In this document: positions 50,623 through 52,580 of the stretch, piece by piece
How the letters are laid out: every line of letters starts with the position of its first letter
How positions within the stretch are numbered: position 1 is the first letter of the stretch
From: a virus
DNA: 64,000 bases
Strand: one strand, 5' to 3'
Virus record (IMG/VR): IMGVR_UViG_3300035156_000188
Location: 1-64,000 of that record
Translations under genes and position numbers: made by a program
Notes under the pieces: generated by a model
What the model was told of the DNA's origin: nothing
The model's input: only the letters and a program-made list of their open reading frames with translations
The model's database searches: none

Positions 50623-51471
50623 ATGTTCAAAAAAGCAACCATCATCGGCTTCAACCCGAAGGCCATGGCCACCCTGACCGTGCCGCAGGAGCAGCTGTTC
50701 GCGCCGCTGCTGTCGAGTGAGGTCAGCCGCTCGGGCTGGTCGGCAGTCCGCGACGACGAGCTGGTCTACATCGGCCACAACAAGCAAGTCCTGATGCACT
50801 TCACGATCGAGAAGAAGATCCTGCCGGCGTCGGTCGTCAACCAGGTCGCCAAGGCCAAGGCCGCCGAGCTGGAAGAGCAGCAGGGCTTCCCGCCAGGGAA
50901 GAAGGCCATGAAGGATTTGAAGGAGCGCGTCTTCGATGAGCTGCTGCCGCGCGCCTTCACCACCACCAGCGTGACCCGCGTCTGGATCGACCGTGAAGCC
51001 GGCCGCATCGTGATCGAGAACACCGCAGGGTCGGTCCTGGACCTGATCCAGCGCGCGTTGTACAAGACCTTCGGCGAGCTGCAGCTGCAGGACATCGCCT
51101 GGCCGCGCGCCAAGGTGCTCACGTCGTGGCTGGACCAGGGCGAGCCGGAACACTTCACGCTTGACGACGCCGTCACGCTGCAGTACCCGAACGCCCAGCG
51201 CAAGGTCGTCAAGTTCGCCAAGGCCAACCTCGCCGCCGAAGACGTCCGTGGCCACGTCGCGGCCGGCGCCGTCGTCCAGGCTGTGGCCATGACCTACAAC
51301 AGCCGCATCTCGTTCACCATCACCGACAACATGCAGCTGCGCGGCATCAAGCCTCTCGACATCCTGCGCGAGTCGGCCGGCACGCCGGACGCGGACAAGT
51401 TCGACAACGATTTCACGCTGATGACCGGCGAGCTGTCCCTCCTGTTCACCGCCCTCGCCGAGGCCGCATGA
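50623..51471 (+). CDS. rdgC: recombination-associated protein RdgC
   Basis: Collinear with E. coli RdgC from memory: KKILPASVVNQ, LLPRAF, WID...G.IVIE, FDNDFTLMTGEL. Confidence 0.8.
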   Translation: MFKKATIIGFNPKAMATLTVPQEQLFAPLLSSEVSRSGWSAVRDDELVYIGHNKQVLMHFTIEKKILPASVVNQVAKAKAAELEEQQGFPPGKKAMKDLKERVFDELLPRAFTTTSVTRVWIDREAGRIVIENTAGSVLDLIQRALYKTFGELQLQDIAWPRAKVLTSWLDQGEPEHFTLDDAVTLQYPNAQRKVVKFAKANLAAEDVRGHVAAGAVVQAVAMTYNSRISFTITDNMQLRGIKPLDILRESAGTPDADKFDNDFTLMTGELSLLFTALAEAA

Positions 51472-52580
51472 CCGCTTACTACAACGAATACGAGAAGTCC
51501 GCAGCCGCCTGGCTGCGCGAATTGATCGCTGAAAACCTGATCGCGCCGGGCGTGGTCGACGAAAGGAGCATTGAAGATGTCACACCCGGAGACCTTGCCG
51601 GATTCAACCAAGTCCACTTCTTCGCCGGCATCGGCGGATGGAGCGCAGCTCTCCGGCTTGCCGGCGTGCCGGATAGCGCCCGAGTCTGGACTGGAAGCGC
51701 TCCTTGCCAGCCTTTCTCCGAGGCAGGCAAAGGCGGCGGGTTTGATGACGAGCGGCACCTATGGCCAGCCTTCCACCACCTCGTCCGCGTCCGCAAGCCT
51801 CGAGTCGTCCTTGGTGAGCAGTCTGCGAGCAAGGACGCAGATGCTTGGTTCGACCTTGTACAAGCTGACCTGGAAGGTCTGGGCTATGCCTTCGGGGCGG
51901 TCGCGTTTCCGTCTGCGGGGATCGGTGCTCCGCACCTCCGCGACCGCGGCTACTGGGTCGCTGCCGACGCCATGGCCCACGCCCCAGGCGCGGGACTTCA
52001 AGGGCGCGCCGCTGGCGGGTATCCACGACCGGGGAGCGAAGGGCGCGCCGCTGAACGAGACCGCGCGATTGGCGAGCTGGCCCACGCCAACGTCTTGCGA
52101 TTCCAACCGCAAGCCGGCGGCCAACTTCACGACCACCAACCTCACGCTCAACCATGGCGCGGCGCTGGCCAGCTGGCCGACGCCGCGCGCGGCGGACGGC
52201 TTGAAGGGAGCGCACCTGGAAGCCCAGACCAACATGAAGGGCACGGACCTGCCCACCACGGCCAGCTGGACGATGGCCGGCTGGCAGACACCTTGCGTGG
52301 ACGGATTCCGGAAGCGGGGCGGGAATCGCTCGGACGAGTTGGGCAACCAGGAGCTGGTGAAGAATGTGGACCAGCCGGCCCGACTAACGGTTACTGGCGA
52401 GCTGCTGACTGGCTCTTCTGCCGGGATGGCAAGTGGCGGGCAGTTGAACCCGGCACACAGCCGCTGGCTGATGGGCTATCCGGCCGCGTGGGACTCCTGC
52501 GGGGCTACGGCAATGCAGTCAATATCTTCGCGGCCGCGGCCTTCATCGAAGCGTTCAAAGATCACTTGAGAGGAAATTAA
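51468..52580 (+). CDS. DNA (cytosine-5) methyltransferase, frame-0 ORF (370 aa)
   Basis: FFAGIGG (51618), PCQPFSEAGK (51702), VLGEQS (51807), GAPHLRDR (51924), RVGLLRGYGNAV (52485); the central ~200 codons are low-complexity with A/T-rich third positions. Confidence 0.7.
   Translation: MTAYYNEYEKSAAAWLRELIAENLIAPGVVDERSIEDVTPGDLAGFNQVHFFAGIGGWSAALRLAGVPDSARVWTGSAPCQPFSEAGKGGGFDDERHLWPAFHHLVRVRKPRVVLGEQSASKDADAWFDLVQADLEGLGYAFGAVAFPSAGIGAPHLRDRGYWVAADAMAHAPGAGLQGRAAGGYPRPGSEGRAAERDRAIGELAHANVLRFQPQAGGQLHDHQPHAQPWRGAGQLADAARGGRLEGSAPGSPDQHEGHGPAHHGQLDDGRLADTLRGRIPEAGRESLGRVGQPGAGEECGPAGPTNGYWRAADWLFCRDGKWRAVEPGTQPLADGLSGRVGLLRGYGNAVNIFAAAAFIEAFKDHLRGN
51577..52569 (+). CDS. nested +1-frame ORF: WPTP-repeat / LNP..WLMG.P protein (330 aa)
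   Basis: AAGGAG (51563-51568) 8 nt before the ATG; W(P/Q)TP at 51973, 52078, 52174 and 52282; [16 protein letters not shown] at 52444; G/C-rich third positions in the central part. Confidence 0.5.
   Translation: [330 protein letters not shown]

Follow-up and report, generated by a model that had tools for sequence, protein, structure and literature searches.

A nested gene pair that probably encodes the two chains of a phage cytosine-5 methyltransferase

The DNA considered here is a viral stretch of 64,000 nucleotides (nt), referred to below as the window (positions 1 to 64,000 of the IMG/VR record IMGVR_UViG_3300035156_000188), and our subject is a cytosine-5 (C5) methyltransferase locus within it, in which two complete open reading frames (ORFs) share about 1 kb of the same strand. 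We call the frame-0 ORF A and the +1-frame ORF, which lies entirely inside it, B; position 3 of every overlapping A codon is position 2 of a B codon. The reading that we favour, with a probability of roughly three in four, is that the locus is a nested, separately initiated gene pair for the two chains of one C5 methyltransferase, of the kind represented by M.EcoHK31I. Both frames are open in nearly all relatives sampled, the synonymous sites of A are frozen where B is conserved, and A retains non-preferred codons that preserve an initiation signal for B.

In the arrangement that we propose, ribosomes starting at 51468 would make chain A, composed of the S-adenosylmethionine (AdoMet)-binding and catalytic domain with motifs I–VIII, a spacer of ~130 residues – whose sequence would be irrelevant but in which no stop could be tolerated – and a C-terminal module closed by the motif X helix, itself part of the catalytic domain. 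Ribosomes starting at an internal Shine–Dalgarno sequence and ATG (51563 and 51577) would make chain B in the +1 frame: an N-terminal tail that looks dispensable, a pair of conserved elements near the N-terminus, WPTP modules in a variable array and a helix resembling motif IX. The array and the helix would be the counterparts of the small DNA-recognition domain of single-chain enzymes. The two chains would then assemble into an active enzyme that might methylate phage DNA against host restriction.

Anatomy of the locus

The features on which the argument turns are the following, with positions counted from the first letter of the window.

51468..52580, plus strand: ORF A, 370 amino acids (aa), alpha-like chain, C5 cytosine methyltransferase with motifs I, IV, VI, VIII and X
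51468..51971, plus strand: A codons 1–168, catalytic AdoMet-binding domain, with a profile match to M.HhaI residues 72–175
51972..52367, plus strand: A codons 169–300, spacer, hypervariable in sequence and length, predicted disordered, always open
52368..52523, plus strand: A codons 301–352, conserved C-terminal module (GPTNGxWRxADWLFCRDGKWRxVEPG...RVGxLRGYGNAV), with a helix after motif X
51563..51568, plus strand: Shine–Dalgarno sequence of B, AAGGAG, 8 nt 5' of ATG 51577
51577..52569, plus strand: ORF B, 330 aa from its ATG, beta-like chain in the +1 frame, entirely nested in A
51685..51756, plus strand: B aa 37–60, conserved motif A-x-LS-x-RQAK-xx-GL-x-TSGT-x-G, on top of A motif IV
51784..51936, plus strand: B aa 70–120, a helix and then a beta-hairpin, on top of A motifs VI–VIII
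51973..52326, plus strand: B aa 133–250, four W[PQ]TP repeat modules, the candidate target-recognition region
52375..52500, plus strand: B aa 267–308, conserved C-terminal module, including a motif-IX-like segment at 52441–52491

The overlap of A and B, as measured from the ORF list and the sequence, is 993 nt, one nucleotide out of phase; an alternative start of B at TTG 51571 would give a protein of 332 aa. An earlier examination of the same letters (hereafter the sequence-only reading) had described two ORFs overlapping for about 1 kb in this relation, and its description of the landmarks holds throughout. In frame A, these are motif I, FFAGIGG (51618–51638); motif IV, PCQ (51702–51710), in the string PCQPFSEAGK that begins at 51702; motif VI, GEQ (from 51807, in the string VLGEQS; GEQS is an ENV variant); motif VIII, GAPHLRDR (51924–51947); and motif X, GNAV (52509–52520, in GYGNAV), at the end of the C-terminal string RVGLLRGYGNAV (52485–52520). 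In the +1 frame, they are the WPTP-type repeats at 51973, 52078, 52174 and 52282, together with the segment at 52441–52491. The AAGGAG at 51563–51568 does indeed stand 8 nt before ATG 51577.

Both frames are open in the relatives of the locus

Relatives were sampled in two ways: a viral sample of 80 contigs was retrieved through the B protein, and a bacterial (prophage) sample of 80 loci was retrieved by frame-A peptide patterns only, so as to remove selection bias. Both frames are open across the whole gene in 79 of the 80 viral loci, where the third frame, taken at the midpoint, is open for only 2–156 codons. The B frame is likewise open in every one of the 80 A-selected bacterial loci, over 268–506 codons and at GC contents of 50–73%. 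Aligning related loci had been proposed in the sequence-only reading as a check on its claims; both ORFs stay open in 159/160. Furthermore, B never occurs without A among the 80 loci found through B, since the –1 frame carries PCQ in all of them (and a C-terminus of the GNA[IVL] type in 79).

The only locus of the 160 with a closed A frame (L061, IMGVR_UViG_2636416133_000009) has a stop at 3156 and an intact B, and a close relative of it (L077) has both frames open; the stop may reflect a sequencing error or a recent inactivation.

How far an open second frame exceeds chance was assessed by synonymous-codon shuffling. Shuffles of the window's A leave the B frame open in 2.8% of cases (P = 0.028), which is weakly significant, and shuffles of the window's B leave the A frame open in <0.1%. 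This single-window test is weak for the B frame, and the case for double coding rests on comparative data: for 34 sampled loci, shuffles predict 0.5–5 stops in the B frame and 5–11 in the A frame, and zero are observed. The double ORF exceeds chance, and the comparative evidence for this is decisive, being far stronger than that of the window alone. Of the three explanations offered by the sequence-only reading, the first – a genuine nested gene – is thus strongly supported by some 160 doubly open loci, as well as by the suppression of synonymous variation in A and the retention of the start signals of B described below.

Dual-coding constraint

As position 3 of A is position 2 of B, every synonymous change in A alters the B protein. 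Variability was measured per codon position in a codon alignment of A, built from 150 loci and reduced to 131 non-redundant ones, and in a stricter set of 71 non-redundant loci selected by A alone, in which only conserved codons with four- or sixfold degeneracy were counted. The gene provides its own single-coding controls, namely A codons 1–36, before the start of B, and 349 onward, after its stop. In the set of 71 loci, the third-position entropies are as follows.

A codons 1–36 (before B's start): 1.57
A codons 37–72: 1.61
A codons 73–163: 0.79
A codons 301–348: 0.53
A codons 349–362 (after B's stop): 1.54

The synonymous sites of A are free before the start of B and after its stop, and they are frozen where B is conserved; the suppression of synonymous variation in the overlap, for which the sequence-only reading had recommended looking, is therefore present where B is conserved. 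Over B aa 70–120, the third-position entropy of A is 0.58–0.80 in the 131-locus alignment, and individual codons are all but fixed: Pro82 is CCT in 130/131 loci, Phe83 TTC in 131/131, Ala86 GCA in 125/131, Phe92 TTT in 124/131, Arg96 CGG in 120/131, Val326 GTT in 128/131 and Pro328 CCC in 128/131. The A-selected set agrees, with CCT at Pro82 and GTT at Val326 each found in 70/71.

Across the WPTP modules, the relation is reversed: position 1 of A, which is position 3 of B, is the most variable, in the manner of ordinary synonymous sites. Judged from this pattern, B is the constrained frame here, and the amino acids of A appear to be free except for the avoidance of stops.

Base composition follows suit in the window. 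The sequence-only reading had counted by hand an intermediate GC content of third codon positions (GC3) in both frames over the first part of the overlap, and recomputation over A codons 37–168 gives 0.67 for A position 3 and 0.76 for B position 3. Its remark that the +1 frame has G/C-rich third positions is borne out over A codons 169–300, where B position 3 stands at 0.89 and A position 3 at 0.59; the value for B comes near the GC3 of the neighbouring genes, 0.91–0.93.

A megablast search of window positions 40000–64000 against 50,697 phage genomes gave matches only at 51540–51972 and 52372–52516, the latter with 89.7% identity over 145 nt to Xanthomonas phages. These sole matching segments coincide with the doubly constrained stretches, which makes the matches a by-product of the double constraint.

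The start signal of chain B

The ATG of B is formed by the A codons Asp37 and Val38 (gAT Gtn), and its Shine–Dalgarno sequence is spelled in frame A as GAA-AGG-AGC (Glu32-Arg33-Ser34). Asp37 is GAT in 113 of 131 loci and GAC in 18, although nearby A codons favour GAC over GAT (82/49 at Asp31 and 101/13 at Asp42). Arg33 is AGG or AGA in 64/131, and Glu32 is GAA in 80 loci versus GAG in 25. An ATG stands at the conserved start position of B in 105/131 loci. The use of non-preferred codons in A that keep both the ATG and the Shine–Dalgarno sequence points to selection for an internal initiation signal, and this argues for independent initiation of B.

A second internal start, at Met57 of B, was considered as the general start and rejected: an ATG is present there in only ~44% of loci – A codon 93 being GAT in 58 and GCT in 57 – and the constraint on B extends upstream of it. 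Many relatives nevertheless have AAA-GGA at A codons Lys88-Gly89, which reads as Lys-Glu in B and places AAGGAG 9 nt before the ATG of B residue 57, and several B proteins in databases are called from Met57. In the window (51723–51749, A codons 86–94), the Met57 ATG is present and its Shine–Dalgarno sequence is degenerate.

Chain A

PF00145 matches A with 50.5 bits (cut-off 22), over A residues 73–167 only, which correspond to positions 64–162 of the 324 of the profile, and the phage methyltransferase family phrog_363 matches it over its full length (3.5e-74). The catalytic motifs of A are invariant or nearly so in 107 homologues. In the alignments, conservation is high over the first ~165 and the last ~60 residues, with free variation of both sequence and length between them.

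The AlphaFold2 (AF2) model of A, made with the 107 homologues, has the same tripartite character. Residues 1–178 are predicted with high confidence (predicted local distance difference test, pLDDT, 85–97), residues 179–338 have a pLDDT of 33–48, and a confident motif X helix follows at 338–369. The best Foldseek matches of this model are M.HhaI (2.5e-7), M.HaeIII and DNMT2; A has, as modelled, the C5 methyltransferase fold. Neither a motif IX nor a recognition domain was found between motifs VIII and X of A, the region being hypervariable, unconstrained and predicted to be disordered.

The N-terminal part of A shows a peculiarity of its own. Within residues 1–81 (51468–51710), stretches akin to motifs II and III (YYNExxxxAAxWL ... 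VDERSIEDV) stand on the N-terminal side of motif I, and only ~23 residues separate motif I from PCQ, compared with ~60 in M.HhaI. The AF2 model is confident at the strands 2–6, 28–31, 46–51 and 73–78, and together these features suggest that the AdoMet-binding strands of the modelled fold are locally permuted in their order. The Firmicute phage and actinophage relatives Lc-Nu, Trax and GordDuk1 keep the canonical order I-II-III-IV.

Chain B

Pfam and NCBIfam searches gave no family match for B, and no Pfam domain was found among more than 6000 of its homologues; however, phrog_1008, a family labelled 'DNA methyltransferase', matches it at 2.5e-36. A profile of B compared with PDB sequences yielded chance matches only. 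The alignment distinguishes four conserved parts – the motif at aa 37–60, the helix and hairpin, the WPTP modules and the C-terminal block – and invariant columns at G91, S92, L94, W99 and R114. The modules, of the form W/L-P-T-P, are ~35 residues each and number 1–7 per B protein among relatives.

Modelled alone by AF2, B is not globular (pLDDT 63, predicted template modelling score, pTM, 0.30). A helix at 70–88 and a hairpin at 95–117 are discernible, aa 70–120 being the best-predicted part (pLDDT 77–86), and Foldseek found no meaningful fold match for the model in the PDB. Such a low-confidence model is consistent with a chain that would fold only against a partner or DNA. The sole hhalign match between B and M.HhaI places the segment at 52441–52491 on HhaI residues 273–289, that is, on motif IX, with an E value of 0.31, which is not significant.

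Distribution and natural variants

A blastn search of phage genomes returned 233 records, many of which have two features annotated under the match. In Salmonella phage epsilon15 (52% GC), the two ORFs recur with their motifs and their frame relation unchanged, and Escherichia coli phage K1ind3 is annotated with both, as 'C-specific methylase' and 'Mte8-like'. The two-frame arrangement also occurs in Klebsiella phage KpV2811, Xanthomonas phage FoX4, the mycobacteriophages KBG and Hades, Lactobacillus phage Lc-Nu, a Stenotrophomonas phage, a cyanophage, phages of Pseudomonas and Burkholderia, and a marine Autographiviridae contig of 33% GC. Paenibacillus phage Diva (45% GC) has its inner ORF annotated as 'g49 internal gene'; a few genome annotators have thus recorded such an inner ORF. 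All relatives examined encode the xPTP region in the frame that is +1 to the catalytic domain.

The phages with B-type ORFs thus represent no fewer than four bacterial phyla (Proteobacteria, Actinobacteria, Firmicutes and cyanobacteria). Clustered at 50% identity, B-type proteins form 10,819 clusters at E <= 1e-3 and 7,456 at E <= 1e-10, and in the larger database homologues number in the thousands for A and for B alike. A de novo origin of B by overprinting was considered and rejected, given that B is this widespread and that a motif which it carries stands in frame in single-frame relatives.

Some relatives divide the motifs differently between the frames. KBG and Hades have the putative motif IX in B and motif X in A, as in the window. 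In the Gordonia phages Trax (L170, 1552–2469) and Baddon (L177, 1309–2379), the motif that closes the C-terminal block of B, in the form xxEWMMGxPxGW, has its place in frame A, directly upstream of motif X, and the +1 ORF is left with the xPTP modules only and ends after them. In GordDuk1 (L175, 1261–2149), A ends just after motif VIII, and the +1 ORF comprises the variable region, motif IX and motif X; the annotation of this genome holds the first ORF only. The A frame is open up to the last conserved motif that it has to reach, and no further, as two independent chains would predict. The occurrence of xxEW[LMI]MGxPxGW at the canonical position of motif IX in Gordonia phages also lends independent support to B as the carrier of motif IX.

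There is also a wider proposition, which we regard as evenly balanced between right and wrong: that the locus, far from being a lone oddity of the M.EcoHK31I sort, belongs to an old clade of great size (more than 10,000 protein clusters, in Proteobacteria, Actinobacteria, Firmicutes, cyanobacteria and marine phages) that is obligately two-chain and has a dual-coding overlap of 0.6–1.3 kb. In such a clade, the xPTP array, as the DNA-recognition part, would be encoded in the +1 frame across the catalytic domain, A would read the array as a meaningless open spacer, and indels would repeatedly have moved motifs IX and X between the chains. The searchable literature yielded no account of the arrangement across phages, of how broad the family is, of the overlap's length or of recognition-type repeats in an alternate frame.

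A prophage of E. coli ECCTRSRTH03 (L179, NZ_CP041110.1, 541–1752) illustrates how annotation deals with such loci: neither A (404 codons) nor B (343 codons) is disrupted, yet RefSeq lists two pseudogene pieces under the label 'DNA cytosine methyltransferase, incomplete; partial in the middle of a contig' and omits B. Several other E. coli genomes carry two such features under the match.

In KpV2811 (L165, 2077–3435), no stop separates the B frame from the following annotated gene, whose product includes an Endonuclease VII domain (PF02945, 6.3e-24). B may be fused to Endonuclease VII here, or the downstream gene, which shares the frame, may have a start of its own, as its annotation has it. 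Three other B-frame products that are longer than usual (P0110, P0057 and P0101) have no recognisable fused Pfam domain.

Relation to known systems

C5 methyltransferases are normally single chains. Two natural exceptions with two chains have been documented, M.AquI and M.EcoHK31I (PMC3404938). In M.EcoHK31I, from E. coli HK31 (Lee, Kam & Shaw 1995), the alpha chain carries motifs I–VIII plus X, the beta chain motif IX; beta is encoded wholly inside the alpha gene in an alternate frame, and both chains are required (PMC2836561, PMC3404938). Beta can do without its first ~42 residues, and initiation is possible at internal Met codons of its frame (PMC2836561).

The window locus, compared with this description, has the same nesting and apparently the same division of motifs (A being without motif IX), and the lack of constraint on the first ~35 residues of B (A codons 37–72) parallels the dispensable N-terminus of beta. 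There are also differences. B, at 330 aa, is nearly as long as A, at 370 aa, and overlies the catalytic motifs IV–VIII as well; the beta and alpha chains of M.EcoHK31I are reportedly 176 and 309 aa long. In the window, the repeat modules are in B and the region between VIII and X in the A frame is an unconstrained, disordered spacer. Finally, M.EcoHK31I belongs to a restriction-modification pair, whereas the window locus lies in a module of phage replication and recombination genes, flanked by an RdgC-like exonuclease and a helicase, with no endonuclease seen adjoining A and B. On this analogy, the locus is of a known kind, and a nested gene is not new for the enzyme class; the sequence-only reading, which had held that it would be, was mistaken on this point.

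M.AquI (Karreman & de Waard 1990) is a two-chain C5 methyltransferase split in the variable region (PMC3404938). GordDuk1 is divided alike, its A ending after motif VIII and its +1 ORF comprising the variable region, IX and X. M.AquI has motif X on the small chain and a portion of its variable region on the large one; the window locus, in contrast, keeps motif X on A after a long read-through spacer and has an overlap of ~1 kb.

The Bacillus phage C5 methyltransferases of SPR, phi3T and rho11s are single chains whose variable region consists of tandem short recognition modules. The 1–7 WPTP modules of B are, by description only, reminiscent of such an array; the modules of the Bacillus phage enzymes, however, are read in one frame and one chain.

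Nested genes as such are familiar in phages, as exemplified by Rz/Rz1 of lambda and by B within A and E within D of phiX174, with overlaps of a few hundred nucleotides; embedded genes are usually lineage-restricted novelties of unrelated function. The window locus resembles these classical cases in being encoded on the same strand, in another frame and with an internal ribosome-binding site of its own. It differs from them in the length of the overlap (993 nt), in its wide conservation and in that both products seem to belong to one enzyme. Rz/Rz1 is cited as a textbook case of a nested gene (PMC9409062).

Weighing the alternatives

Several points weigh against our interpretation of the locus as a two-chain enzyme. 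The likeness of B to motif IX is not significant alone, and B has neither a Pfam family nor a fold match in the PDB. In about 20% of loci, the conserved position holds no ATG, so another start must serve there. The kinship with M.EcoHK31I is drawn from a description of that enzyme, and the literature places its predicted recognition domain in alpha, not in beta. Furthermore, translation of B and its assembly with A are read here, in all members, from the sequence.

The alternative that survives best – though we consider it unlikely – accepts B as a real, separately translated nested gene and denies that it is a methyltransferase subunit, A alone being the enzyme and B serving in DNA binding, anti-restriction or regulation. 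The failure of B to match any Pfam or NCBIfam family or any structure would fit this, as would the shortness and lack of significance of its motif IX resemblance and the fact that A keeps motifs I, IV, VI, VIII and X. Yet A would then be an enzyme with no recognisable recognition domain or motif IX, the region between its motifs VIII and X being unconstrained and predicted to be disordered. The variants speak against it as well: Gordonia phages place xxEW[LMI]MGxPxGW in frame directly upstream of motif X, and in GordDuk1, where A stops after motif VIII, the +1 ORF holds both IX and X, so that B must be part of the enzyme there. Finally, none of the 80 loci found through B has B without A, and M.EcoHK31I provides a precedent for a nested subunit.

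Less probable again is the second explanation of the sequence-only reading, a single chain made by programmed recoding, with a +1 shift after motif VIII into the WPTP frame, a –1 shift back after motif IX to reach motif X, and the long ORFs as by-products. Its attraction is that the hybrid A(1–168)-B(133–305)-A(343–370) has the canonical order of motifs I–VIII, variable region, IX and X, and that the xPTP region is always +1 relative to the catalytic domain in the relatives examined. A recoded enzyme, however, would have no need of an open A spacer, and the spacer is open in 159/160 loci, against 5–11 expected stops; nor would the first ~130 residues of B need a constraint, an ATG or a Shine–Dalgarno sequence, and they have all three. 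Around the proposed junctions (over A codons 150–172 and 303–352), no conserved slippery heptamer was found, either of the form X_XXY_YYZ or as a +1-type site, and synonymous constraint is relaxed at the +1 junction (entropy 1.13–1.20 over A codons 157–163). The hybrid gains no PF00145 coverage over A alone, and a Pfam search of this artificial A–B–A construct and of C-terminal pieces added no coverage of motifs IX or X. A minor recoded product may exist besides A and B.

The third explanation, that two compensating single-base errors or indels, or decay into a pseudogene, have disrupted an ordinary methyltransferase of ~370 aa and that B is a chance ORF of high-GC DNA, is refuted in practice and deserves very little credence: high-GC DNA does often contain long spurious ORFs (antisense ones of 150–200 codons occur here), 2.8% of shuffles of the window's A leave B open, and the NCBI pipeline calls the E. 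coli relative two 'incomplete' fragments, yet the arrangement is conserved across phages of several bacterial phyla, both frames are open in ~160 independent loci at GC contents down to 50% and in phages of 45% and 33% GC, the dual-coding constraint and the start of B are conserved, and the E. coli 'fragment' locus has both ORFs intact.

Implications

Gene callers keep one frame of such loci only and leave B 'hypothetical' or absent. If the locus is a two-chain methyltransferase, thousands of phage methyltransferases are wrongly described, and predictions of methylomes and of anti-restriction inherit the error. If the recognition modules, 1–7 in number, sit on a separate chain, specificities could be newly combined or increased in number with the catalytic chain left as it is, which would matter both for phage host range and for the engineering of split methyltransferases – a use to which M.EcoHK31I has already been put (PMC2836561).

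With more than 10,000 sequences, two proteins on ~1 kb of shared DNA and single-coding controls at both ends, the family is also an unusually good system in which to study how constraint is partitioned in overlaps and how an open but meaningless spacer is maintained. Should the proposition of a single large clade hold, few same-strand overlapping pairs in prokaryotic viruses would be as long or as widely conserved as these genes. As the nested design has a precedent, the interest lies in the scale, age and anatomy of the family, which appear to be undescribed.

The surroundings of the locus

Four antisense ORFs of 117–203 codons lie over the locus on the minus strand (51294..51758, 51479..51832, 51604..52215 and 51759..52346); long antisense ORFs are common at this GC content, and no sign of these four being genes was seen.

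The gene upstream of A (50623–51471) encodes an RdgC-like recombination-associated exonuclease (phrog_724), and its stop overlaps the ATG of A in the sequence ATGA; downstream, an ORF at 52581–52787 begins on the base right after the TAA of A. Such tight packing of genes around A suggests translational coupling along one operon.

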